Below, one piece after another: positions 29,645 to 41,668 of a DNA stretch of 64,000 bases (positions within the stretch are counted from its first letter, which is position 1; the number at the start of each line of letters is the position of its first letter). This stretch comes from Gammaproteobacteria bacterium (GTDB taxonomy: Bacteria; Pseudomonadota; Gammaproteobacteria; Eutrophobiales; Eutrophobiaceae), in assembly GCA_022826885.1 (NCBI GenBank), contig JAJDUB010000047.1, positions 2,076 to 66,075 of the forward strand, read 5' to 3'. Both the position numbers and the translations under genes were made by a program. The notes beneath the pieces are model-generated. The model worked only from the letters and a program-made list of their open reading frames with translations. It was not told where the DNA came from and made no database searches.

Positions 29645-31015
29645 ATGCATTTTTATGCCGATCTTCATATCCACTCAAAATATTCCCGCGCCACCAGCAA
29701 GGATTGCGACCTGGAGCACCTGAGCTTCTGGGGGCGCAAAAAAGGTATCACCGTTATCGGCACGGGTGACTTCACTCATCCTGCATGGTTCAGTGAATTA
29801 AGTGAAAAACTGGTGCCGGCGGAACCGGGCCTGTTCCGTCTGCGCGACGATATTGAAAAGGAGGTCATGCAGAAATTACCGGGGAGTTGTCACGGCACAA
29901 CCCGTTTCATGCTGTCGGTGGAGATATCCACCATCTACAAAAAGGGCGAGAAGACACGCAAAATCCACCACCTGATCTACGCGCCTACCCTGAACCAGGC
30001 GGAGTTTATCAACCGCAAACTCGACCGCATCGGCAACATCAAGTCCGACGGGCGTCCCATCCTGGGCCTGGATTCCCGCCATTTACTGGAGATTGTGCTG
30101 GAAGCCGGGGAGGGCTGCTACCTGGTGCCGGCCCATATCTGGACCCCCTGGTTTGCCGTCCTGGGGTCAAAATCCGGCTTCGATTCCATAGGCGAGTGTT
30201 ACGGCGACCTTGCGGAGCACATATTCGCCGTAGAGACCGGCCTCTCAGCCGACCCGGACATGATAAGGTTGGTCTCGGACCTGGATCGTTACCGCCTGGT
30301 CTCCAACTCGGACGCGCATTCCCCGGCCAAACTGGGACGGGAGGCTTGTATATTCAACACTGATCTGGACTATTTTTCCATGCGCCGCGCCCTGGAAACG
30401 GGTGAGGGCTACGGCGGCAGCGCGGAATTCTTTCCGGAAGAGGGCAAGTACCACATGGACGGGCATCGCAAATGCAATGTCCGCCTGTCACCGGAGGAAA
30501 GTCGCCGACTGGGCGGTATCTGTCCCGTGTGCAACAAGCCTTTGACCCTGGGCGTGATGCACCGTGTACATGAACTGGCTGATCGCCCCGCAGGGGAAGC
30601 GCCTGAAACTACCGATCCCTTTGTCAGCCTGGTTCCCTTGCCGGAGGTAATCGCGGAAACGGAAGGCGTCGGCCCGAACAGCAAGCGGGTGGCAAACAAA
30701 TACGAACAACTACTGCATAAACTCGGGGCGGAATTAGGGATACTGAACGACATCCCCCTGGAGGAGATCAAAAACCTTTCCAATTCCTCCCTGATCCCCG
30801 AGGCTATTGCCCGTATGCGCAAGGGAGACGTGATCCGCGAAGCCGGTTACGATGGCGAATACGGCAGGATCAAACTGTTCCAGGAAGATGAACTGAAGCA
30901 AGCCGCCACTTTTGACTCATTTTCAATTAACACCTATATGGATAGCATCCGTGCGGGCACTCGACTCGGTACCGGCCTGTCCATAGATGACTTACGGAAG
31001 GAAGGACGGCGCTAG
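29645..31015 (+). CDS. Endonuclease Q-like PHP-domain protein (TIGR00375-type)
   Basis: 456 aa with the PHP N-terminus 'DLHIHSKYSRATS...VIGTGDFTHPAW', 'NSDAHSP', the Zn-finger 'CPVCNKPLTLGVMHRV' and 'GYDGEYGRI'. The ATG lies 1 nt after the qor stop. Confidence 0.75.
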   Translation: MHFYADLHIHSKYSRATSKDCDLEHLSFWGRKKGITVIGTGDFTHPAWFSELSEKLVPAEPGLFRLRDDIEKEVMQKLPGSCHGTTRFMLSVEISTIYKKGEKTRKIHHLIYAPTLNQAEFINRKLDRIGNIKSDGRPILGLDSRHLLEIVLEAGEGCYLVPAHIWTPWFAVLGSKSGFDSIGECYGDLAEHIFAVETGLSADPDMIRLVSDLDRYRLVSNSDAHSPAKLGREACIFNTDLDYFSMRRALETGEGYGGSAEFFPEEGKYHMDGHRKCNVRLSPEESRRLGGICPVCNKPLTLGVMHRVHELADRPAGEAPETTDPFVSLVPLPEVIAETEGVGPNSKRVANKYEQLLHKLGAELGILNDIPLEEIKNLSNSSLIPEAIARMRKGDVIREAGYDGEYGRIKLFQEDELKQAATFDSFSINTYMDSIRAGTRLGTGLSIDDLRKEGRR

Positions 31016-31128
31016 TAGCTTCGCTGGTGCTGGACTGCTCCGTCAGCGCAGCCTGGTTCTTTGAGGACCAATTCAGCAGCTACAGTGAACGTGGCCGGGG
31101 GAAGGGTGTTCAACTGAAATTCCGATAA
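31015..31128 (+). pseudogene. Stub of a PIN-domain (VapC-like) toxin gene
   Basis: The frame reads 'VASLVLDCSVSAAWFFEDQFSSYSE...'. This matches the first beta-strand/helix of PIN toxins (LxLDxSVxxxWxxxE) and then runs out after 37 codons into the 3' end of the opposing gene. Confidence 0.4.
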
Positions 31129-31547
31129 GCCCTGATTTCATTCAAGACGTCATCTTCCGTGATGTCATTTTCTAATGCCCGTTTTTTGCCATAGGAATAA
31201 ATTTCCTCCCATACGGCCTTATCTGACGAAAAGTGGTAGACCCCGATCTCAGGCCTGGTTTTTAACATCAATACCACTTTGGGTATCAGTGGCTCCAAAT
31301 CCTGAACGCGCGTACGGTACGAAATAAGAACAATGATGGTGACTGGTAGAGTATCCGGATTCTGTTGATATTCCATGCTCCTGTCCGTTGTAACGAGAGC
31401 ATCAAAATCCTCCTGGCTTGCAAGCGTCAATAATGAGCCGTTCTTTATTCCAGCCCAGCCCATTTGAGGCACCGTTCTGATGTCAAATGTACCAGGGAAA
31501 CTACGGGCCAAAAGACGGGGGACGGACTCGTCAAGGAGTAATTTCAT
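31110..31547 (-). CDS. DUF5615-family (PIN-like) putative toxin with C-terminal extension
   Basis: 145 aa. 'MKLLLDESVPRLLARSFPG...VRTV..MGWAGIKNGSLL' is typical of DUF5615. It overlaps the upstream DUF433 gene by 17 nt. Confidence 0.7.
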   Translation of the reverse strand: MKLLLDESVPRLLARSFPGTFDIRTVPQMGWAGIKNGSLLTLASQEDFDALVTTDRSMEYQQNPDTLPVTIIVLISYRTRVQDLEPLIPKVVLMLKTRPEIGVYHFSSDKAVWEEIYSYGKKRALENDITEDDVLNEIRAYRNFS

Positions 31548-31776
31548 CTCCTTGATTTGCGAATTGGTCGAGGGCCAATTTGATAGCCTGGGTGGCTTGA
31601 TTACGGGTTACACTGGGAAAATTGTCAAGAAAATCATCAAGGCGATCACCTGCTTCAAGATGCTCTGATAATATGCGTACAGGTACTCGCGTACCGGTGA
31701 AAACGGGCGTTCCTCCCAGAATCTCCGGATCACAGGTAACAACTGAATGACTTATCTGTGGATTCTGCTTGTCCAT
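31531..31776 (-). CDS. DUF433-family putative antitoxin
   Basis: 81 aa. 'DPEILGGTPVFTGTRVPVRILSEHLEAG..LDDFLDNFPSVTRNQ' is the DUF433 core. Confidence 0.75.
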   Translation of the reverse strand: MDKQNPQISHSVVTCDPEILGGTPVFTGTRVPVRILSEHLEAGDRLDDFLDNFPSVTRNQATQAIKLALDQFANQGDEITP

Positions 31777-32029: not shown

Positions 32030-32737
32030 TTAACCCGGGAACAGAGTTGCGCACCACTGGCGTAGAGCGTTAAGCAGTCCTGCTGTTTTGTCCTGGTTTG
32101 TAACTTTATTCGTGCGGGACAGTTCCAGTTGTATCCACGGCTTGCGCTGACCGTAATGTTGAGTGATATACCCGCCAGCGAAGGGGGCGTTAACGGCGAC
32201 AGGCTGTCTGAATTCCGCTTCCATGATCTCTGCGAGCAATGTGATCCACTGTTCCGGACAGGTTTTATGATGTGCATTTCCCAGACAGATCAATGGTCGC
32301 TCCTGACCCGGATCCGGGCCGACCGGCGGCCCGTACTCCGCCATGGTGTGGCAGTCTATGCATACCGGCACATCCTGCATCGCTGAGAAGCCCGCCAGGT
32401 CCCGGTGGTATGGGATGTAATACTTTTCAATCAGCAGTGCAATCATGTCAGCGTCCGGGTATTCACGATAAACCGGCACATCCCAGCAAGTATGGGTTTT
32501 GATGATCCCGTCCTTTCTGAAATCGTCGGTAGCCCGGTTCAAGTCGACGATAGCCCGGGCAAAATCAGATTTCCGGAAAGCAGCGACATGGAGTTCCAGC
32601 GGCGAATAAATCTCGTCTGCGCCTACATCGCCGTCCTCAATGACCTCCTGCGCGGTCAACGCACAGATCTGTTTGATTTCAACCGGGATTTTTACGCCGC
32701 TGTGTGGGGCGGACAGGGCAAGAGGCAAGATGCTCAA
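32030..32737 (-). CDS. N-formylglutamate amidohydrolase (FGase) family protein
   Basis: 235 aa with 'SAPHSG' near the N-terminus, 'CIDCHTM' and 'GGYITQHYG'. It overlaps the upstream GGT gene by 4 nt. Confidence 0.7.
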   Translation of the reverse strand: MSILPLALSAPHSGVKIPVEIKQICALTAQEVIEDGDVGADEIYSPLELHVAAFRKSDFARAIVDLNRATDDFRKDGIIKTHTCWDVPVYREYPDADMIALLIEKYYIPYHRDLAGFSAMQDVPVCIDCHTMAEYGPPVGPDPGQERPLICLGNAHHKTCPEQWITLLAEIMEAEFRQPVAVNAPFAGGYITQHYGQRKPWIQLELSRTNKVTNQDKTAGLLNALRQWCATLFPG

Positions 32738-34332
32738 TCCGTACCGCCAGCCGAGCCGTCGCGCCGGGGGTCGGCGACTCCCATGAGTTCACCCGGCGCT
32801 TCCCGAATGACAAGTTGTACGCTGCCAAGGTAAAACGAGTAGGGGTCGCGGACATCTATCTCAAATCCATGCCTGCTCAACAGTTTGGGGATATCGTCAC
32901 GGAAACGGGAGGCTTCCAGCGACACCCTGCCTCGTACCGAGCAATGCATGCGCGGGGCTTCCACGGCATCGAACGGATGGGCGCCACGCTGGAGGCGCAG
33001 CAGGACCTGTACGATAGCCGACACTATGCGCTCGCTGCCCGGGGAACCGATGACCAGCCAGGGTTGGCGTCCTTTGAACACAATGGTCGGTACCACGCTC
33101 GCCCAGGGGACGGCATTGGGGCGCAGGAAGTAAGGGTGGGTGATGTCCTTGTACTCAAAAGAGGTCATGTAGTTGTTATATAAAAAACCCAGGTCCGGCG
33201 TTGCGGTAAAGGAACCGTAAACCTGTTCGATGGATTGGGTGATGCCTACCACGTTGCCCTGGTTATCCATGGCTGATAAATGGGTGGTTTCTCCCTGGGT
33301 GGTGATTCGGCGCTTGATCCGTTTCGCAATCGTGGCTGCATAGCTTTTTTCGGTAATATCCTGGCCCATTTCCAACTCCTGGGCGAACAGGGCAGGGTCA
33401 TCAGGCTGGTCGGCCCGGTCCAGGTTGGCTTTGCGCAATACATGAGCCAGCAACAGGGCGCCTTCCGGTGTATCGGGATCCTGTAACCTGTCGGGAAACT
33501 GCTCCAGCAGGTTTAACGTTTCAATCAGCGTGCGGCCGGCGCCTGGCGGGCCGAATGTGAAGATGCGCAGGTCGGAGAAACGCGTTGCCAGGGGGCGCCG
33601 CTCTATGGGCCAGGGAATCTGCGCCAGGTCATCATCCCGGATATAACCGCCGTTTGCTTCCATATCGGCATGTATCTTCGCCGCTATCTCTCCCTGGTAG
33701 AAATCTTCGATGCCGGCCTCAGCCAGGCGTTTGAATGTTTGCGCCAGCACCAGTTGTTTGAATATGCTGCCGATTGCCCAGGGTTGTGTCCCGTTTCTGA
33801 GAAAGAATTTGGCGGCCGTTCCCTGCTTCAGGTATTTCAGTTCCCGTTTGGTCAGGTAATGTTGCAAAGCTGAAACAGGGTACCCCTGTTCGGCAAAATA
33901 AATCGCCGGTTGCAATATCTCATCCAGCGGTTTTGTGCCATATCTGGACAGGATGTAAGCAAGCACGGCAGGAGTGCTTGGGACGGTCGTCGCCTTGTGC
34001 CCGCGCAATCTCAGGGTGCGATCCAGTTCCCCCGGAACAACCCGGTTAGGCGCGCGCGTGCCGCCATCCAGGGCAATCTTTCTTTTGGAATCGGCATGGT
34101 ACAGGAGCGCCATGCTCTGCCCGCCGAGGCCCGACGCGGCGGGTTCCACCACACCCAGGGCGAACGCTGCCGCTACTGCCGCATCTATCGCATTGCCGCC
34201 GTTTTTCAGGATTTCCACGCCTGCATTGGTGGCCAGGTAGTGTGAAGTCGCAATCATGCCTTTTTTGCCGATGCTGACACGCTGCGGATAAACGATGCGG
34301 CGATCCCGGGGATCAACCAGCTCGGTATCCAT
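32734..34332 (-). CDS. Gamma-glutamyltransferase family protein, no visible signal peptide
   Basis: 532 aa counted from ATG 34332; the ORF-track start 34458 would overlap the upstream gene by 101 nt. It has 'ATSHYLATNAGVEILKNGGNAIDAAVA' and the Ntn nucleophile motif 'GETTHLSAMD'. Confidence 0.85.
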   Translation of the reverse strand: MDTELVDPRDRRIVYPQRVSIGKKGMIATSHYLATNAGVEILKNGGNAIDAAVAAAFALGVVEPAASGLGGQSMALLYHADSKRKIALDGGTRAPNRVVPGELDRTLRLRGHKATTVPSTPAVLAYILSRYGTKPLDEILQPAIYFAEQGYPVSALQHYLTKRELKYLKQGTAAKFFLRNGTQPWAIGSIFKQLVLAQTFKRLAEAGIEDFYQGEIAAKIHADMEANGGYIRDDDLAQIPWPIERRPLATRFSDLRIFTFGPPGAGRTLIETLNLLEQFPDRLQDPDTPEGALLLAHVLRKANLDRADQPDDPALFAQELEMGQDITEKSYAATIAKRIKRRITTQGETTHLSAMDNQGNVVGITQSIEQVYGSFTATPDLGFLYNNYMTSFEYKDITHPYFLRPNAVPWASVVPTIVFKGRQPWLVIGSPGSERIVSAIVQVLLRLQRGAHPFDAVEAPRMHCSVRGRVSLEASRFRDDIPKLLSRHGFEIDVRDPYSFYLGSVQLVIREAPGELMGVADPRRDGSAGGTD

Positions 34333-34357
34333 ATACTGTTTTGACTGCCTGTTCAAA

Positions 34358-36505
34358 TCAGTCAGCCTGTGACAGCAGGTATTCCGACAGCAGCAAGGTG
34401 CGTTGTACGAGACTGATACGGGAGACGGACTCGCGACTGGTATATAACTCCCTGGCAACGGGGCCGACGCCGCACAGGACCGGCACGAAATCAGGCGCCA
34501 GTCCCGCGGCCGATGGCAATAGCGACGCTTCCGTCTTTATCGGTATGTCCCATTTATCGGCAATAGCCATATAATCCCGGACCAGCGTGTTGTTTTTGCG
34601 GCGCTCCGGCATGGGGGGGCGTTCAGACAGCAACGCCAGGTTCCACTTGACGCCTTCGCCCTTCAGCACACTTCTCATGGATTGTTCAATATCCTTTGCA
34701 ACATCCTGTTTTGGATATGAAACCTGAATCATCACGTTGACCCTGTGGGGCAGCAGGCCGGGAAAGGCCTCAGACTCTATATCCACTGCCGAGACCCCGA
34801 TACGGTTGGCCCGGGATGATAATTTTGCAAGTTCTTCCAGTTTGGCAAACACGATGCGCATCACCTCCCTGCGCACGCCGCTTTGACCCAGTTTCTGCGG
34901 CTTGCCTTCTACCAGCAAGCGGTAACGGCGTTGCCCCCTGCGCGCGGTGACGACGTGGTCATCCAGGTTTCCGGGAGTCAGAACAAGAACCTGCTTTGCC
35001 TGCCTTGCCGCCCGGGTAATATACTCCCTGCTTTCTATGCAGTCCCTGCCTTCATCGGCATAATAGAGGACACCCAACGGTAATTTATTCAATTTTCGGG
35101 CCGCGCGTAACGCGCGCAAGCTGTATTCCAGCATTGCGAGTGAGGCCCGGGATGACCCCACGCCTTCACCGTAGAGCCATTCGGGGTCGCGCCGGAAATG
35201 TTCCACGTTGAAAACCGGGTTGATGGGCACGTCCAGGAAGCCGATCAGCAAGGTGCCCTCATCCAGGCCGCGCCGGGTCTGCCAGCACCACACATCACGG
35301 TTGTCGGTCAGTTCCCGCATCGGCAGCAGGCCGCAGTCCAGCAGGGTGTCATTTATTTTGTCAGCGGCGAGGGAGGTGCCGATGGGATCATCGGTCCTGC
35401 TTGAAACTCCTGCCCATTCCTCCACCTTTTTTTCCAGCCGGTCACGCCGTTGGGTCAGGTAGGTGAAAGCAGCAGTGTCGGGGTCCCTGGCCGAGGAAGA
35501 CAGTTCGGGCGGGTTGGGGGTGCCGAAGTAGCGCGCACTGGCCACTTCAATTAACCGATTGGCCAGCGCAGCGAAATCCATACCCATGGCCTCGGCTGCC
35601 GCCACGTAGGAGCCGTGTTCACCCAGGCTGGGCAGGCTGTTGATCTCCAGGATATAGAAATTGCCGTCCTCATCCAGGCGCAGATCGACGCGGGCGCAGT
35701 CATAGCAACCCAGCGCATTGAATGCGTTTATGGAAATTTCATGGGCCTGTTTTGTCAGCTCTTCATCGAGCGGGGCAGGACAGAGGATCTTGATTTCCCT
35801 GCCGGACTTGCTTTTTTTATCCTCCATGGTGTAGATGTTGGGGCCGCCCTCGCCAAACACCAGTTCCGCCGGCGGAAATACGTCCGGCGTGCCATTGCCC
35901 AGCAAACCGACATTGATCTCCCGGCCCTCAATGTAGCGTTCTACCAGCACCGGTTGATTGAACTGGTCGAAAATAAACCCGGCGGCCTCCCTCAATTCGT
36001 CGGCGTCGTTCACGATCCTGATGCCCATGGAGACCGCCTCGTTCTTGGGTTTGACGATAAGCGGGTACTCTATCTCAGGGTCGGGATAATCGGGCGCATC
36101 GAGCACCACAAAATCGGGTGTGGGTATCCCCTGTTGCACAAAGATCATCTTGGCGACCACCTTGTCCAGCGACAGCGAATGGGCCAGCGGACCGGAACCC
36201 ACGTAGGGCACCCCTACCATCTCCAGCATCCCGGGCACATGGGTGTAACGGGCCTGTCCCTGGATACCGTAGGAAAGGTTGAATACCATACCGGGACGCT
36301 CGCCCTTCAACGCCCGCGGCATGAATTCTTCCAGCTTGTCTATCAGGTCCTTGTCACCCTCCAGGGCAATCACCTGGTGCCCGCCACCCTGCAATGCCTT
36401 GACCAGACGTTGAATGGCGCGAATGCCGTAGCGCTCGCGATTGGGCACACCAAACAAATTGATGACGCTTTTGCTTTCCCGGTTATATACGATGGCGATT
36501 TTCAT
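34358..36505 (-). CDS. Fusion protein: D-Ala-D-Ala-ligase-like ATP-grasp (aa 1-~330) + degenerate M20 peptidase-like domain (aa ~335-715)
   Basis: 715 aa. The ATP-grasp part has 'LIVKPKNEAVSMGI', 'VERYIEGREINVG' and 'CARVDLRLDEDGNFYILEINSLPSLG'. The C-terminal half is collinear with M20 motifs, but ligand positions read F423, S451, G486, T510 and Y688. Confidence 0.85.
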   Translation of the reverse strand: MKIAIVYNRESKSVINLFGVPNRERYGIRAIQRLVKALQGGGHQVIALEGDKDLIDKLEEFMPRALKGERPGMVFNLSYGIQGQARYTHVPGMLEMVGVPYVGSGPLAHSLSLDKVVAKMIFVQQGIPTPDFVVLDAPDYPDPEIEYPLIVKPKNEAVSMGIRIVNDADELREAAGFIFDQFNQPVLVERYIEGREINVGLLGNGTPDVFPPAELVFGEGGPNIYTMEDKKSKSGREIKILCPAPLDEELTKQAHEISINAFNALGCYDCARVDLRLDEDGNFYILEINSLPSLGEHGSYVAAAEAMGMDFAALANRLIEVASARYFGTPNPPELSSSARDPDTAAFTYLTQRRDRLEKKVEEWAGVSSRTDDPIGTSLAADKINDTLLDCGLLPMRELTDNRDVWCWQTRRGLDEGTLLIGFLDVPINPVFNVEHFRRDPEWLYGEGVGSSRASLAMLEYSLRALRAARKLNKLPLGVLYYADEGRDCIESREYITRAARQAKQVLVLTPGNLDDHVVTARRGQRRYRLLVEGKPQKLGQSGVRREVMRIVFAKLEELAKLSSRANRIGVSAVDIESEAFPGLLPHRVNVMIQVSYPKQDVAKDIEQSMRSVLKGEGVKWNLALLSERPPMPERRKNNTLVRDYMAIADKWDIPIKTEASLLPSAAGLAPDFVPVLCGVGPVARELYTSRESVSRISLVQRTLLLSEYLLSQAD

Positions 36506-36516
36506 TAAGTAATCCT

Positions 36517-36531
36517 ATTGAATTATTCAAT
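36517..36531. promoter_or_regulatory. 15-bp palindrome ATTGAAT-T-ATTCAAT, 12-26 nt upstream of the ATP-grasp start codon
   Basis: Perfect 7-bp arms surround a central T. It is too short-looped to be an RNA hairpin, so it is a candidate dimeric-regulator operator. Confidence 0.3.
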
Positions 36532-36580
36532 CTGACTTACAACCGGACAGGGTCGGAATATCCGGCCTGGGGAGCAACCC

Positions 36581-36638
36581 AAAAAAAGATACAAGCGGTT
36601 TGGCAATGGATATGCCATATACGTCTACCGCTTGTATC
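36581..36638 (-). terminator. Rho-independent terminator after the MscS-like gene
   Basis: 12-bp arms gatacaagcggt (36588-36599) and accgcttgtatc (36627-36638), followed on the minus strand by a T7 run (36587-36581). The 27-nt loop is large. Confidence 0.6.
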
Positions 36639-36655
36639 AACCGCTGCAACTTTGC

Positions 36656-37519
36656 TTATGAAGTGTTTTCGCTGACAACATTCCGAAGAAGATTTTCGTT
36701 CGGAATGTGAATTAAAGTTCCATCCTGAACCCGAATGCTTGTAGTTATTGAACCGACACTTTCTACGGTGCCCTGATACTCGAGAAACTGAAGTTTGGCG
36801 CCGGGTTTATACAAATCACGCGCATACACACCGGAAACGATACTTTGCGCCACGCCTCTGGTGCCCAGACCAAGAGCGATTGCGAGTGCAGCCCCCACTG
36901 CGATCAAAATAATTCCGATAACCTGATCAAGCAAACCGGTTTCGACCCCGAGCTGATCGATGGCGAGAGTACCCACTACGACGATGAGCACGATATATGC
37001 CAATCGTGAGACCGCACGGGCATATCCGAAGCCCAATCCTTCGGCTGCCGTTTCGACAAGAGTACGGACAAAGTGCGCCAGCAACAGGCCCAACACAACA
37101 ATCAATGCAGCCGCAATCACATTAGGCAGGTATTCTACAAAGGTGTTGATGGTCCTGGATACGTTCTCCAGTCCGAGCGTCTCCGAGGCTGAAATAAGAA
37201 TCGTCAACATGAATAACCAGAAGACCAGCTTGCCTACAATTTCTGACGCCGAGGATTTGATCCCTACTCTCGCCAGGGTCCCGTTCAGCCCGGTTTTCTC
37301 GCTGGCCACTTCGAATTTAACCTTTGTGAGTATTGCGGTGGTGATCCTCGCCAGCAGCAGGGATAACAAATAGCCTATGACGACGATCACGATTGCACCG
37401 AGTAAATTGGGAATGAACACGGCGATCTTTGTCCAAAGCGCAGTCATCGCTTCGACAACGGTATTTTTCCATTCAATCGGCAAATCCATGCCCGGTATGG
37501 TATTGGTTGCATCATTCAT
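36656..37519 (-). CDS. MscS-like 'conserved TM-helix repeat' membrane protein (paralogue 1)
   Basis: 287 aa with repeated 'Y/F-(I/L)PN-hydrophobic helix' units ('FIPNLLGAIVIVVIG', 'YLPNVIAAALIVVLG'). The C-terminal beta-domain-like segment reads 'GTVESVGSITTSIRVQDGTLIHIPNENL'. Confidence 0.7.
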   Translation of the reverse strand: MNDATNTIPGMDLPIEWKNTVVEAMTALWTKIAVFIPNLLGAIVIVVIGYLLSLLLARITTAILTKVKFEVASEKTGLNGTLARVGIKSSASEIVGKLVFWLFMLTILISASETLGLENVSRTINTFVEYLPNVIAAALIVVLGLLLAHFVRTLVETAAEGLGFGYARAVSRLAYIVLIVVVGTLAIDQLGVETGLLDQVIGIILIAVGAALAIALGLGTRGVAQSIVSGVYARDLYKPGAKLQFLEYQGTVESVGSITTSIRVQDGTLIHIPNENLLRNVVSENTS

Positions 37520-37963: not shown

Positions 37964-38554
37964 TCATAGCTGGTTTTCTATTGCAGCTTTGAGGCGTTGT
38001 TCAGCCCTGTAAAGTCGCATCTTGCATGCACTGAGATTTAATTCCAGAGCCTGTGAGATTTCTTTGAAACTCAGCTCTGATATATGTCTCAGGATAAGGA
38101 TTTCGCGATCAGGTGCAGCGAGTATATCCAATGCGTTAATCAGTGGAGCATCCTCCAGATCGATTTTGTCCGCTGGTGAATTACCCTGTTCAATAATTTC
38201 AAATTGCTCAAGCCAGGCTTGGCGCTGCTCATGGATACGCCGTAAAGACCGGTATCGCGAAGCGCAGATATTGGCGACAATACGAAAAAGCCAGGTCTTG
38301 AACGATGCGCGGCCGTCAAATTTGTCAATGTTGAAAAACAACCGTAGAAATACATCCTGTGTCGCTTCTTCTGCCTCGTTCTCCAACTTCAGGTACCTGA
38401 GGCATGTCCGGAATACCAACGACTCATAGCGCCGCACCAGCTTTTCGAATGCTGTCGTGCCATAAGGCTTCTCAGCCTTGCATGATGCGACCAGTACGTC
38501 ATCTGATTCTGCTGATATCCCGTGCTTTTCATTATTTTCCATGGTGACAGACAC
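37964..38554 (-). CDS. ECF-type RNA polymerase sigma-70 family factor
   Basis: 196 aa; a GTG start at 38554 or ATG at 38542 are both possible. Region 2 reads 'EEATQDVFLRLFFNIDKFDGRASFKTWLFRIVANI' and region 4 reads 'REILILRHISELSFKEISQALELNLSACKMRLYRAEQRL'. Confidence 0.88.
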   Translation of the reverse strand: MSVTMENNEKHGISAESDDVLVASCKAEKPYGTTAFEKLVRRYESLVFRTCLRYLKLENEAEEATQDVFLRLFFNIDKFDGRASFKTWLFRIVANICASRYRSLRRIHEQRQAWLEQFEIIEQGNSPADKIDLEDAPLINALDILAAPDREILILRHISELSFKEISQALELNLSACKMRLYRAEQRLKAAIENQL

Positions 38555-38706: not shown

Positions 38707-39534
38707 ATGCAGCAACAATATGATGACTGGAAAGATCTGTTAACCAACAGCTTCGACCAGTTTATATCCACATTCATGGCCTACCTGCCCAACCTGTTCA
38801 CTGCCCTGGTGCTGCTTGTTGCCGGTCTGCTCGTTGCGGCTCTCATTCGTTCATTGATTATCCGTCTGGGAAAATGGCTGGAACAGTTTGCGCAAAGGAC
38901 AGGCATCAGTTCCTACTATTTTCGCGTGCGCTGGCCCATCACTCGCATCATAGCGACGATCATATACTGGCTCGTAATTATATTTTTCGTTACCGCCGCC
39001 GCGAAGAGTCTGGGCTTGCCTGGCATTGCCGAATGGCTGAACAAGCTCATCGATTATTCTCCTTCCATCCTGGTCGCTGCCCTGATCATCTGGGCAGGTT
39101 TCGTACTGGGCGATTTTACCAGGGAAAAACTGGCTGCCAGGCTCGGCGACTCCCGCATACAGCAGGCAGAACAACTGGGAAATGCCGCACGGATCCTGGT
39201 AATTACCTTGACGATTATTATTGGATTAGGCCAGTTGGGTATCGACATTGACCTGATAGCTCAGATACTCGTCTTATTGATATCCGCTGTCTTGCTGTCT
39301 CTCGCTTTGGCATTCGGATTTGGGGCAGGAACAACTGTTGCCAATATTATCGCCCTGCGGAACTTGAGCAGGCACTACCACACCGGGCAGCGCGTACGAA
39401 TTGGTGATGTGGAGGGAGAAATATCCGAGTTATCAAAAACTACGGTGATACTCGATACCGATTCGGGCCAGGCAATAATTCCGGCAAAGTTATTCCAGGA
39501 GGAGACATGTGTTCTGCTGGATGAGGAAGATTAG
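38707..39534 (+). CDS. MscS-like 'conserved TM-helix repeat' membrane protein (paralogue 2)
   Basis: 275 aa with the same architecture as 36656-37519 ('YLPNLFTALVLLVAG', 'YSPSILVAALIIWAG'). The C-terminal segment reads 'GDVEGEISELSKTTVILDTDSGQAIIPAKL'. Confidence 0.7.
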   Translation: MQQQYDDWKDLLTNSFDQFISTFMAYLPNLFTALVLLVAGLLVAALIRSLIIRLGKWLEQFAQRTGISSYYFRVRWPITRIIATIIYWLVIIFFVTAAAKSLGLPGIAEWLNKLIDYSPSILVAALIIWAGFVLGDFTREKLAARLGDSRIQQAEQLGNAARILVITLTIIIGLGQLGIDIDLIAQILVLLISAVLLSLALAFGFGAGTTVANIIALRNLSRHYHTGQRVRIGDVEGEISELSKTTVILDTDSGQAIIPAKLFQEETCVLLDEED

Positions 39535-40359
39535 ATGGCTGCCGATCCTGTCATACAGCGATTTATAGAAAAACATGCGGACAATGTGGCTCGGCTGCTG
39601 GAATCTGCCGGGTATGATGAGATGCGGGCTTTTATGGCGACATTATCTACGGAACAGGCAGCAAGCATAGTCCGGCACCTGGGCAAGCGCAGTGCCTGCC
39701 ATTATCTGGCAACGCTGGGCACGGAGCAGGCCATGGAGATCATCAAGGTCCTGCCCGTACAGTATGCTGCCGCCCTGATCAGGGACATGCCGGGGCCGGA
39801 AAAAAAAGCGCTGCTTGCCGGCAAAGATATCCCTTACCGGATTAAAACAATCCTGCGTTACCCAAAGGACAGTGTCGGCGCGGAGATGGAAAGCAACCCC
39901 GTTACCCTGAACGAGGGTTTAACGGTGAAACAGGCCAGGGCTTTCCTGAAAAAAAACCGTGACCATATATCCGACACCTTGTTTGTAACGGGCAGTGAGC
40001 AGCAATTTACAGGTGTAATTGCCTTGAAGAACCTGTTGTTTGCAGATAATACAACCAAAATCGCACGGTTATGCGAGCCGTCCACACACCGGTTATCTCC
40101 ACGGGAAGCGCTGGTATCGGCGGGCGCACACCCGGCATGGAAACAGGTTACGGCGCTGCCTGTTGTTGAGAGAGGCGGGCGTTTATCCGGCGTATTACAC
40201 AGGGAGAGGGTGCAGGAGGTTTTAGATACGGCGCCTGTTAATCCAGCGCTGACCAGCGACATCACTGACGGTGTCTTTTCGTTAAGTGAACTGTTCTGGA
40301 CCGCCTGCGCAGACATGCTGTCCGGCAACGATTCCCCCGCACAGTCTGAACGGCACTGA
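39535..40359 (+). CDS. Stand-alone MgtE N-domain + CBS-pair protein (no membrane domain)
   Basis: 274 aa with MgtE_N-like helical repeats ('EQAASIVRHL', 'EQAMEIIKVLPVQYAAALIRDM') followed by CBS-like segments. There is no hydrophobic C-terminal half. Its ATG directly follows the stop of the preceding gene. Confidence 0.75.
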   Translation: MAADPVIQRFIEKHADNVARLLESAGYDEMRAFMATLSTEQAASIVRHLGKRSACHYLATLGTEQAMEIIKVLPVQYAAALIRDMPGPEKKALLAGKDIPYRIKTILRYPKDSVGAEMESNPVTLNEGLTVKQARAFLKKNRDHISDTLFVTGSEQQFTGVIALKNLLFADNTTKIARLCEPSTHRLSPREALVSAGAHPAWKQVTALPVVERGGRLSGVLHRERVQEVLDTAPVNPALTSDITDGVFSLSELFWTACADMLSGNDSPAQSERH

Positions 40360-40360
40360 A

Positions 40361-41668
40361 ATGACAAGGTCAATTGCTGATATAAGCGCTTCCCTGCGCA
40401 GAGATTTCTTTCAGAGTTATCCGGCGGAAGCGGTTCATTATATGGAAGAATTGCCCACGGAGCGAATTGCCGACGTGCTGAAAGGCTTGCCTCAGGCTTT
40501 GTCGGTCAGTATCTGGGAGGCGCTGTCCCCTGTCATTGCCGCCCGCACACTCGCTCACCTGGATGGCAATACAATTCAACAGGTACTTTCCCGGATTGAT
40601 CCCAACAGGGGCGCGCTTATTTTGTCTTCCCTGGCCGACGAGGAACGCAAGCGCTGCCTCAGCCTGTTAAATCCTCATGTCGTCCAGGATTTCGAGCGGG
40701 CATTGAGTCATGAGCCGGACAGCGCCGGCGCCCTCATGAATACCAGGGTGGTTTACTACACGCAGGATATGAAAGTAAGGGACGTCGTGAAGAAACTCCG
40801 GCTTCACCGGCAAACCGGGTTCAGGGTTTTGTATATCACGGATGACGAAAACAGGTTGACCGGCATGGTTGAACTGCAGGACCTGGTACTGGCGCGCAGG
40901 GAGAGTCGTTTAGGCGAAATAGCCCAGCCTGTCAGGGCAATAGCCCTGGTAACGACTACAAGCGAGGAGTTGGTGGACATATTCGATAAATTCCGCTTGA
41001 CGGATCTGCCCGTGGTGGATGCCGACCGGCATTTGATCGGCATTATTCAACACCATATCCTGCTCGATGCTGCCAGGGAGGAGGCCATCGTCGACATCCA
41101 GACGATGGTAGGGGTAAGCAAGGACGAGCGGGCGCTGTCGGACGCATCTTTCGCCATCAAAAAACGCCTGCCCTGGTTACAGGTAAACCTTGCCACGGCG
41201 TTCCTGGCAGCTGCCGTAGTCGGCGTATTCGAACAGACCATAGCCCAGGTTACAGCTTTGGCAGTATTGTTACCGGTAGTGGCCGGGCAATCGGGCAATA
41301 CCGGCGCCCAGGCCCTGGCCGTCACCATGCGCGGCCTGGCCCTTCGCGAGGTCTGGCCGCGGCATTGGCTGCGCCTGGTATTCAAGGAATTCAACGTGGG
41401 CTTGTGGAACGGCATTGCCGTAGCCTTGACGACCTCTTTGGGTGTCTATATCTGGAGCCAGTCATTGGGCCTGTGCCTGATTATCGGCATTTCCATGGTT
41501 GCTTCCATGATTATCGCTTCGGTTTCCGGCGCGATGATCCCTGTTCTGTTAATCAAGGCAGGCCAGGACCCGGCTACCTCGTCTTCCATTTTTTTGACGA
41601 CCGTAACGGATGTTATGGGTTTTTTGAGTTTTCTCGGGATTGCTACTTTACTGATGGGGATGATTTAA
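40361..41668 (+). CDS. mgtE: Magnesium transporter MgtE
   Basis: 435 aa counted from ATG 40361, 1 nt after the upstream stop; the ORF-track start 40286 overlaps the upstream gene. It has the N domain, a CBS pair and a 5-TM domain with 'PVVAGQSGNTGAQALAV' and 'TTVTDVMGF'. Confidence 0.88.
   Translation: MTRSIADISASLRRDFFQSYPAEAVHYMEELPTERIADVLKGLPQALSVSIWEALSPVIAARTLAHLDGNTIQQVLSRIDPNRGALILSSLADEERKRCLSLLNPHVVQDFERALSHEPDSAGALMNTRVVYYTQDMKVRDVVKKLRLHRQTGFRVLYITDDENRLTGMVELQDLVLARRESRLGEIAQPVRAIALVTTTSEELVDIFDKFRLTDLPVVDADRHLIGIIQHHILLDAAREEAIVDIQTMVGVSKDERALSDASFAIKKRLPWLQVNLATAFLAAAVVGVFEQTIAQVTALAVLLPVVAGQSGNTGAQALAVTMRGLALREVWPRHWLRLVFKEFNVGLWNGIAVALTTSLGVYIWSQSLGLCLIIGISMVASMIIASVSGAMIPVLLIKAGQDPATSSSIFLTTVTDVMGFLSFLGIATLLMGMI

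Follow-up and report, generated by a model that had tools for sequence, protein, structure and literature searches.

Pairs of a ligase and a hydrolase that handle amines have precedents in PuuA/PuuD and PauA/PauD, and glutathionylspermidine synthetase/amidase (GspSA), in which a synthetase and a hydrolase act on a peptide-polyamine amide, is a precedent for a regulated make-and-break cycle. Our study sets beside these systems a three-gene operon from a 64,000-nucleotide stretch of a Gammaproteobacteria bacterium genome (contig JAJDUB010000047.1; the window, meaning the whole stretch that was analysed). Its products are ORF1, a fusion of a Ddl-type ATP-grasp ligase with an M20-like domain; ORF2, a homologue of gamma-glutamyltranspeptidase (GGT); and ORF3, an amidase of the N-formylglutamate amidohydrolase (FGase) fold. 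We found that this trio is one conserved unit, widespread and of undescribed function. With a confidence a little short of even, we propose that it attaches an acyl group of the glutamate type to an amine, for which a polyamine or ammonia is the most likely candidate, and removes it again, in the service of cation or osmotic homeostasis.

The unit was followed through 105 loci gathered from genomes and metagenomes, 66 of which were informative, in that the ligase is 50% or more identical and no less than 2.5 kb of DNA follows it. In 57 of these the ligase is followed by the GGT gene and then the FGase gene, in the same order and on the same strand; two loci carry the GGT gene only, one carries it with too little DNA beyond to judge the FGase gene, three have a class-I glutamine amidotransferase (GATase) instead, and in three the ligase stands alone. 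The median gaps are 32 nt between the ligase and GGT genes and -4 nt between the GGT and FGase genes, and the GGT gene starts directly after the ligase in 20 of 21 shorter loci. A protein search returned about 2,000 relatives of ORF1, the best 120 of which are all full-length fusions (59-98% identical) carried by Thiohalocapsa, Imhoffiella, Thiodiazotropha, Sedimenticola, Desulfoluna, Thermodesulfobacteriota, and many metagenome bins, and there are at least 543 confirmed metagenome matches to the module. Chromatiaceae, Desulfobacterota, and Nitrospirota are represented; most carriers found are Desulfobacterota and uncultured sediment bacteria, and the named carriers are all marine or saline taxa. 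An earlier sequence-only reading of the window had called the operon an orphan, which is wrong given these 57 loci and the metagenome matches; it had also staked its proposal on the three genes being neighbours in related genomes, as they are.

None of the best 120 homologues bears a functional name, the source names being only 'ATP-grasp domain-containing protein' or 'D-alanine-D-alanine ligase'. Literature searches on the trio, or on its parts with osmolyte or polyamine terms, found no description (the 2009 amidoligase survey by Iyer et al. lies outside their coverage), and a search on ATP-grasp enzymes with carboxyspermidine/spermidine gene clusters likewise found no description of the module. 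With no homologue of assigned role, the earlier failure to map the trio to a characterised pathway is upheld. Beyond the trio the flanks vary between loci, and clustering of about 750 neighbour ORFs from 95 loci gave no fourth conserved gene in more than eight loci.

In the Thiodiazotropha lineage (L014, L020, and L104), the class-I GATase takes the place of the GGT and FGase genes at the same position and has an intact Cys-His-Glu triad; it scores best against glutaminase subunits (GMP synthase subunit A, TrpG/PabA, and CarA), and its match to the PuuD-type Peptidase_C26 is faint (E 3e-4 to 2e-6). In another locus (L094, 1606-5978), two tandem full-length ligase fusions precede the GGT gene. 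In two loci, the other strand has two further free-standing genes for Ddl-like ATP-grasps, located a few kb beyond the downstream end of the trio (L084, 9140-11231, and L089, 6556-8647, both on the minus strand), with proteins 31-34% identical to the N-terminal half of ORF1. A 2.3-kb contig of a metagenome-assembled genome (L008, CAYOEQ010000365.1), labelled 'uncultured Enterobacteriaceae', encodes proteins 99-100% identical to ORF1 and ORF2 of the window; this label is probably a binning or taxonomy error because all other relatives are Chromatiales-like or Desulfobacterota.

The ligase fusion and its two hydrolases

The three minus-strand ORFs are packed as had been read from the window before, with a 25-nt gap between ORF1 and ORF2 (34333-34357) and an overlap of 4 nt between the start of ORF3 and the stop of ORF2. 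The gap is given for an ORF2 start at ATG 34332; the open frame reaches TTG 34458, and the ATG is the start common to orthologues, which align from residue 1-2 of this form and, for ORF3, from its TTG start (32737). The domain calls are far above chance, with Pfam matches to Dala_Dala_lig_C (E 1.3e-40), G_glu_transpept (E 5.8e-111), and FGase (E 5.7e-41), the last of which bears out the FGase-like reading of ORF3. The peptide motifs RVDLRLDEDGNFYILEINSLP, GETTHLS, and CIDCHTM, which had been singled out earlier, are all present in the translations.

The N-terminal half of ORF1 was mapped by alignment to P. aeruginosa DdlB, and its residues were counted over 123 family members. The ATP, Mg, and catalytic residues K152, E156, R272, D274, E287, and N289, which we take to be K144, E148, R255, D257, E270, and N272 of E. 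coli DdlB, are invariant in these sequences, as the sequence-only reading of an ATP-grasp Mg/ATP ligand context would have it. The D-Ala-binding positions, presumably H63, S150, Y216, S281, and L282 in E. coli DdlB numbering, are replaced across the same set: S150 by V158, H63 by Y79, S281 by G298, and L282 by S299, with a variable residue at the equivalent of Y216 (position 232). ORF1 falls below every curated Ddl cutoff, its best NCBIfam score being 178.1 bits against a cutoff of 243 (NF002378) and its TIGR01205 score 166.4 against 245.65. An AlphaFold2 (AF2) model of the protein has a pLDDT of 82.5 and a pTM of 0.82; its N-terminal half matches DdlB (2dln) at a TM-score of 0.84, and the closest solved structures are all D-Ala-D-Ala ligases. 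Because the catalytic residues are invariant, the D-Ala positions are replaced, and the scores lie below the Ddl cutoffs, ORF1 is best regarded as an active-looking amide ligase, predicted to use substrates other than D-Ala, and not as a Ddl.

The M20 affinity of the C-terminal half is visible only through a family profile and a fold search. Its 390 residues alone give no Pfam match even at E 10, and as a single sequence they give a weak match to carboxypeptidase G2 (CPG2; E 0.0018). A profile of 20 sequences reaches CPG2 at E 9.7e-14 and, weakly, DapE at about 1e-3, and in a Foldseek comparison this half of the AF2 model matches CPG2 (1cg2) at a TM-score of 0.74 over 391 columns, which include both M20 subdomains. 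At the five zinc-ligand positions of CPG2, H112 is F423 in the window protein (H in 98 of the 123 sequences, Q or N in 20), D141 is S452 (S in 111), E176 is G486 (G in all 123), E200 is T510 (R, N, T, or K in relatives and never E or D), and H385 is T689 (T in 118); the canonical ligand is found in none of the 123 sequences at the D141, E176, E200, and H385 positions. Since four of the five ligands are lost family-wide, this half is not a di-zinc peptidase. It is conserved for some purpose, because D425, D484, E485, H587, and several Arg residues are invariant in the family, and the HxD Asp, the general-base Glu position, and the lid-domain His are kept. From these residues, we consider the domain a probable pseudo-peptidase or repurposed binding domain. 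Free-standing relatives of about 390 aa retain all M20 motifs, and more distant Ddl::M20 fusions have likewise lost the DEE motif. The M20-like fusion proposed earlier therefore stands as a fold, by profile and by AF2 model, and falls as a trimming peptidase, the zinc site being lost.

ORF2 aligns end to end with the GGTs of E. coli and Bacillus, and its T349 corresponds to the E. coli nucleophile T391 (reference 2e0w), so the Ntn nucleophile recognised in the sequence-only reading is indeed kept, at a putative autoprocessing site. The gamma-glutamyl pocket differs from that of E. coli at R114 (G91 in ORF2), N411 (Glu, as in Bacillus), Q430 (Tyr), D433 (Ser or Ala), S462 (Ala), and G484 (Ser), and S463 and G483 are the only E. 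coli gamma-glutamyl-binding residues retained. These replacements are invariant in nine orthologues of different phyla, and an invariant R93 stands two residues after G91. The score of ORF2 is just below the GGT equivalog cutoff (TIGR00066, 337.9 against 357.85). Because the canonical pocket has been lost, a plain gamma-glutamyl peptide is not an obvious substrate, which counts against the small gamma-glutamyl peptide that had been suggested as the product. Neither candidate N-terminus has a hydrophobic leader, as noticed before, and no export signal was found in 82 orthologues taken with their longest upstream extension, where the 12-residue stretch of highest Kyte-Doolittle hydrophobicity reaches 1.62 in only one and has a median of 0.71. 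ORF2 is accordingly predicted to be cytoplasmic, in agreement with the cytoplasmic module envisaged earlier. One locus (L071, 11769-13418) has an extra GGT paralogue between the cytoplasmic GGT homologue and the FGase gene; it has a signal-like N-terminus and an Asp at the E. coli D433 position, and offers an internal contrast to the ORF2 type.

The metal-site motifs PHxG, DLNR, and DCHTM are present in ORF3, whose profile matches 2q7s at E 1.2e-9 with the PHxG, DxNR, and HxM motifs aligned. We rejected its reading as HutG: the hutG model TIGR02017 scores 68.2 against a cutoff of 278.75, and no hut-related families are present among the annotated recurrent neighbour clusters of the trio loci. 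By these motifs and scores, ORF3 is an amidase of the N-formylglutamate amidohydrolase family other than HutG.

Neighbouring genes and the function proposed for the trio

For the analysis of neighbouring genes, the ligases were grouped into 34 clusters at 70% identity, and MscS channels and Mg2+ transporters were counted within 8 kb. MscS-family channels are found in 13 loci (9 of the 34 clusters), often directly adjoining the ligase, and span at least four subfamilies, including small MscS-like, canonical MscS, and MscK-type channels; MgtE or CorA Mg2+ transporters are found in 12 loci (7 clusters). Diadenylate cyclases lie near the trio in six loci, sigma-54 activators in eight, and a glycosyltransferase weakly like glucosyl-3-phosphoglycerate synthase in four. 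Polyamine genes accompany five of the 34 clusters, in three unrelated forms and in different phyla. The first form is an ADC-CANSDH-CANSDC-agmatinase set, which in Desulfoluna (L013) immediately precedes the ligase gene in the same orientation and in L054 is convergent with it; L056 has the agmatinase gene upstream, and in the Thiodiazotropha locus L104 ligase, GATase, agmatinase, and ADC genes are packed on one strand. The second, in L033 and L040, is a SpeY/DHS-like gene with an agmatinase homologue and an AdoMetDC-family gene, a set that corresponds to a homospermidine route (PMC13625781). The third is a PotABCD-like ABC importer directly upstream in L015. Because the MscS, Mg2+, and polyamine adjacencies are spread over 9, 7, and 5 of the 34 clusters, they are not one inherited arrangement. 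MscS genes number only a few in a genome of several thousand genes, and every other class is present there in one to three copies. Chance adjacency would amount to about 1-2% per locus, against the 10-20% seen, this background being an estimate and not a measured control. In several loci (L017, L018, and L056; neighbour clusters c15 and c29, and 'GshB'), the vicinity of the trio holds genes for a 7TM-transglutaminase, for an ATP-grasp of the glutathione synthetase family, and for a 'putative ATP-dependent zinc protease' (PF05618), which form another poorly understood amidoligase system.

More distant fusions, 35-36% identical, show related settings. In P0204, a signal-less GGT homologue follows the fusion by 4 nt and has the DGSSRAP and ATTVPSTPA motifs that are also in the main family. 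In P0220, from a 3.3-Mb genome, a co-directional MscS-like gene of 275 aa lies 2 nt downstream of a fusion about 35% identical, and it has relatives among the MscS-type neighbours in four loci of the main family. These MscS neighbours, in the 13 main-family loci and beside this sister fusion, give comparative support to the hint of an osmolyte or stress metabolite that had been taken from the MscS-like genes of the window. The 36%-identical fusion P0191 is followed after 30 nt by a KamA-family radical-SAM gene on short contigs (L098, 2626-3306; L099), a fragment that scores 247 bits against glutamate 2,3-aminomutase, over half of the model, and 143 against lysine 2,3-aminomutase; this is possibly a beta-glutamate-utilising ligase system. 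The fusion in P0223 is flanked by an intact M20 peptidase and another ATP-grasp.

The characterised members of the CPG2-like fold and of the GGT, FGase, and GATase families all act on Glu/Gln amides, and we infer on this basis that ORF1 joins a glutamate-type acid to an amine. Its ATP-grasp half would activate a carboxylate as an acyl phosphate and join it to an amine other than D-alanine; the M20-fold half would most likely serve dimerisation and the holding of an acidic ligand, glutamate-like or N-acyl-glutamate-like; and ORF2 and ORF3 would cleave the amide bonds of the conjugate or of its breakdown product, freeing glutamate. Because of the polyamine-gene contexts, a polyamine (spermidine, homospermidine, putrescine, or agmatine) is the leading candidate for the amine, with ammonia as the alternative. 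These recurrent polyamine genes and the GATase that stands in for GGT and FGase in one lineage, both beyond the reach of the sequence-only reading, are the strongest clues to the substrate. The module may thereby buffer the pools of free polycation and glutamate in ionic and osmotic homeostasis.

Several points weigh against this proposal. No polyamine gene was found in the 64-kb window. The residues that hold the free alpha-amino and alpha-carboxylate groups of a gamma-glutamyl group have been lost from ORF2, which disfavours a plain gamma-glutamyl-amine, and the best matches of the GATase are ammonia-donating glutaminase subunits, its likeness to PuuD being faint. A simple cycle of ligase and hydrolase leaves the role of the FGase unaccounted for, and a synthetase co-transcribed with hydrolases would run a futile cycle unless regulated. 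The enrichment of neighbours, in turn, rests on a rough background estimate and has no phylogenetically corrected control.

Three features fit a substrate with blocked or uncharged alpha-groups, or ammonia as the nucleophile: the changed pocket of ORF2, an amidase of the N-acyl-glutamate type, and a GATase that resembles glutaminases. This makes a carboxamide or beta-glutamate-type compatible solute the closest rival explanation. We consider it unlikely. ORF1 would then amidate a glutamate-derived acid, or extend it with an amino acid, to an uncharged solute of the beta-glutamine, NAGGN, or N-carbamoyl-glutamine-amide type, and the ammonia would be supplied by the amidotransferase or through a glutaminase activity of the GGT homologue. 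When the osmolarity falls, breakdown of the solute would be the task of ORF2 and ORF3, and its release that of MscS-type channels. Such a scheme accommodates a GATase closest to the glutaminase subunits of amidotransferases, the loss from ORF1 of those residues with which Ddl grips the second substrate by its carboxylate, which suits a small uncharged nucleophile, and an ORF2 pocket that has lost both charge-recognising residues, which suits a blocked alpha-amino and an amidated alpha-carboxyl group. It also draws on the fusion beside a gene like that for glutamate 2,3-aminomutase, the enzyme making beta-glutamate, a known osmolyte, although this link comes from a sister family only and from a partial gene. 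The neighbours (MscS, diadenylate cyclase, and the glycosyltransferase weakly like glucosyl-3-phosphoglycerate synthase) and the marine or saline habitats of the named carriers fit a solute as well. However, an amidotransferase is absent from most loci, GGT-type enzymes are not known to supply a synthetase with ammonia, the scheme does not account for the associated polyamine genes, and it would be unusual for a solute synthase to share a transcript with enzymes of degradation. Conjugation to an amine and synthesis of a solute both put the module in cation and osmotic homeostasis, which is backed by the themes among its neighbours.

Two further explanations carry little weight. The presence of a GGT-family protein in sulfur-cycling bacteria suggests thiol metabolism, in which the module would make or recycle a gamma-glutamyl thiol such as glutathione amide. 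That amide is known from Chromatium; Chromatiaceae, Thiodiazotropha, and Sedimenticola are among the carriers; and L018, L056, and L080 have in the vicinity of the trio a gene for a true glutathione synthetase (443 bits for PRK12458, whose cutoff is 408). This adjacency is nevertheless limited to three loci, cysteine or thiol enzymes are not recurrent among the neighbours, most carriers are Desulfobacterota and uncultured sediment bacteria, and the ORF2 pocket is devoid of the residues by which glutathione would be bound at its free gamma-glutamyl end, all of which makes this explanation very improbable. Least credible of all is a cell-wall peptide set, in which a second D-Ala-D-Ala ligase would be joined by murein-peptide amidases recycling L-Ala-gamma-D-Glu-mDAP peptides. 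GGT-family enzymes can cleave gamma-D-glutamyl bonds (CapD), the closest solved structures to the N-terminal half of ORF1 are D-Ala-D-Ala ligases, and the C-terminal half is weakly like DapE (E 1e-3); but the Ddl cutoffs are unmet and the D-Ala-binding positions replaced family-wide, on which grounds we rejected a peptidoglycan reading, the M20 half has no metal site, and no mur, amp, ldc, or mpl gene is among the recurrent neighbour clusters annotated in about 100 loci.

A bolder but doubtful reading is that ORF1 belongs to a new family of ATP-grasp ligases, each with a pseudo-M20 domain built in to hold the substrate, and that their product is a glutamate-derived amide not described before, whether a glutamyl-polyamine or a carboxamide without charge. 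Sulfur-cycling bacteria of marine and saline habitats would buffer cations and osmotic pressure with it; a dedicated cytoplasmic GGT-type hydrolase and an FGase-type amidase would turn it over, and its pool would be functionally tied to MscS-type channels, Mg2+ transport, and c-di-AMP signalling. If this is true, a metabolite and a regulatory layer would be added beside K+/glutamate, Mg2+, polyamines, and c-di-AMP. The module is common in marine sediment and symbiont bacteria yet is named by no annotation pipeline, and assigning it would close a recurrent gap in the genomes that drive sulfur cycling. ORF1 would show clearly how a ligase can take on a metallopeptidase fold as a domain without catalytic function, and ORF2 would be a cytoplasmic GGT-family enzyme with a rebuilt acyl pocket. 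The question lends itself to direct tests, since there are carriers in culture (for example Desulfoluna butyratoxydans and Imhoffiella purpurea) and the three proteins are predicted to be soluble.

The upstream region and other features of the window

The features of the window are collected in Table 1. The gene directly upstream of ORF1 is a channel-like gene that ends in a hairpin and U7, as the sequence-only reading had it; this terminator (dG -28.6 kcal/mol, z -3.0) separates the MscS-like gene from the operon, so that the gene is context and lies outside the transcription unit. A simple promoter and terminator scan missed it because its loop is longer than the limit of the scan, and the same scan found no sigma-70 promoter in the spacer (36506-36655). 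The palindrome that had been noticed upstream of the operon, TTGAATAATTCAA, was confirmed and is possibly an operator. The terminator hairpin has the sigma-54-like box TGGCATATCCATTGC within its loop, and the TGGCA/TGCCA halves of this box also make the inner stem, so it could be a putative promoter nested in the terminator or mere stem bases. Upstream of the ligase, the strict sigma-54 motif is present in 6 of 84 loci against about one expected. As a general feature, sigma-54 control was rejected on these 6 of 84 loci and on sigma-54 activator neighbours in eight loci only.

Table 1. Coordinates of the operon, its candidate control elements, and other features in the window.
Feature	Position	Strand	Description
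ORF1	34358..36505	-	715 aa; Ddl-type ATP-grasp (~residues 1-325) and M20/carboxypeptidase-G2-fold domain (~326-715)
ATP-grasp half of ORF1	35531..36505	-	
Degenerate M20-like half of ORF1	34358..35530	-	
ORF2	32734..34332	-	532 aa; GGT-family Ntn hydrolase
ORF3	32030..32737	-	235 aa, TTG start; FGase-fold amidase
Palindrome TTGAATAATTCAA	36518..36530		perfect, 13 nt; just upstream of the ORF1 ribosome-binding site; possible operator
Intrinsic terminator	36581..36638	-	of the upstream MscS-like gene; 12-bp stem, inner 5-bp stem, U7
Sigma-54-like -24/-12 box TGGCATATCCATTGC	36603..36617	-	GG-N10-GC, near-consensus; 112 nt upstream of the ORF1 ATG; putative
Small MscS-like channel gene	36656..37519	-	directly upstream of ORF1
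ECF-type sigma factor gene	37964..38554	-	
Second small MscS-like gene	38707..39534	+	paralogue, 25% identical to the first
MgtE_N-CBS protein gene	39535..40359	+	
Full MgtE gene	40286..41668	+	
DUF433/DUF5615 gene pair	31110..31776	-	overlapping ends; directly downstream of ORF3; toxin-antitoxin-like
456-aa ORF	29645..31015	+	opens with the PHP-like motif DLHIHSKYS; no Pfam match at E 0.001

On the upstream side of the operon, the two small MscS-like paralogues flank the sigma factor gene and are followed by the two MgtE-type genes, a group in which the window itself displays the ion theme of the neighbours; the closest relative (L011) has MgtE and MS-channel genes too, but they flank its trio on the opposite side. 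A recent horizontal island is unsupported, the GC content being 0.56-0.58 in the operon and about 0.54 in the window.

Comparison with described systems

The module fails at least one defining feature of each of the systems to which it can be likened: Ddl, M20 peptidase, canonical GGT, HutG, NAGGN, Puu/Pau, and GspSA. With Ddl, whose structures are its best sequence matches, ORF1 shares the fold and the ATP/Mg and acyl-phosphate residues; it differs in its scores below the cutoffs, in the replaced residues for both D-alanines, in the 390-aa M20-fold extension, and in having no cell-wall gene context. The C-terminal half has the catalytic and dimerisation domain fold of CPG2 and the M20 peptidases, but the family as a whole has lost four zinc ligands out of five, the window protein lacks the remaining one too, and there is no Pfam M20 match. 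ORF2 has the GGT domain (PF01019) and the Thr nucleophile of canonical bacterial GGT but neither its pocket residues nor its export signal nor an equivalog-level score, and ORF3, which shares the FGase fold (PF05013) and the metal-site motifs with HutG, differs from it in equivalog score and gene context.

Among whole pathways, the likeness to NAGGN synthesis (Ngg, AsnO, and an associated peptidase), which the sequence-only reading had drawn, lies in an ATP-grasp ligase with a peptidase-like part, the NAGGN product being a glutamine-type amide solute. This analogy fails on the defining parts: ORF1 has no GNAT match, its M20-like part is fused and inactive, and no AsnB/AsnO-type amidotransferase is present in the trio or among the annotated recurrent neighbour clusters. 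With GspSA the module differs in that its hydrolases are separate proteins and its fused second domain is catalytically degenerate, and Pfam scans of the trio proteins gave neither GSP_synth nor CHAP domains. In the phevamine pathway, ATP-grasp enzymes themselves reportedly attach the amino acids to the polyamine. The product, phevamine A, is a small amino acid-spermidine conjugate and a virulence factor of Pseudomonas syringae, and ATP-grasp enzymes are mentioned in its description (PMC6187163), which makes them a precedent for conjugates of this kind. The pathway has different partners, without an M20, GGT, or FGase association.

A functional parallel is with the gamma-glutamylation pathways for amines of the Puu, Pau, and GlnA3 type, with which the module shares an ATP-dependent amide ligase next to a GATase- or gamma-glutamyl-type hydrolase and a link to polyamine genes. 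Its ligase, however, is an ATP-grasp and not glutamine-synthetase-like, its usual hydrolases are a GGT homologue with a non-canonical pocket and an FGase-fold amidase, and an oxidase or dehydrogenase partner is not recurrent among the annotated neighbour clusters. This mismatch lowers the case for membership in these pathways and leaves what appears to be a functional analogy. By such analogy, the module would resemble the sets of ligase and amidohydrolase that tag and untag small amines or build amide solutes.

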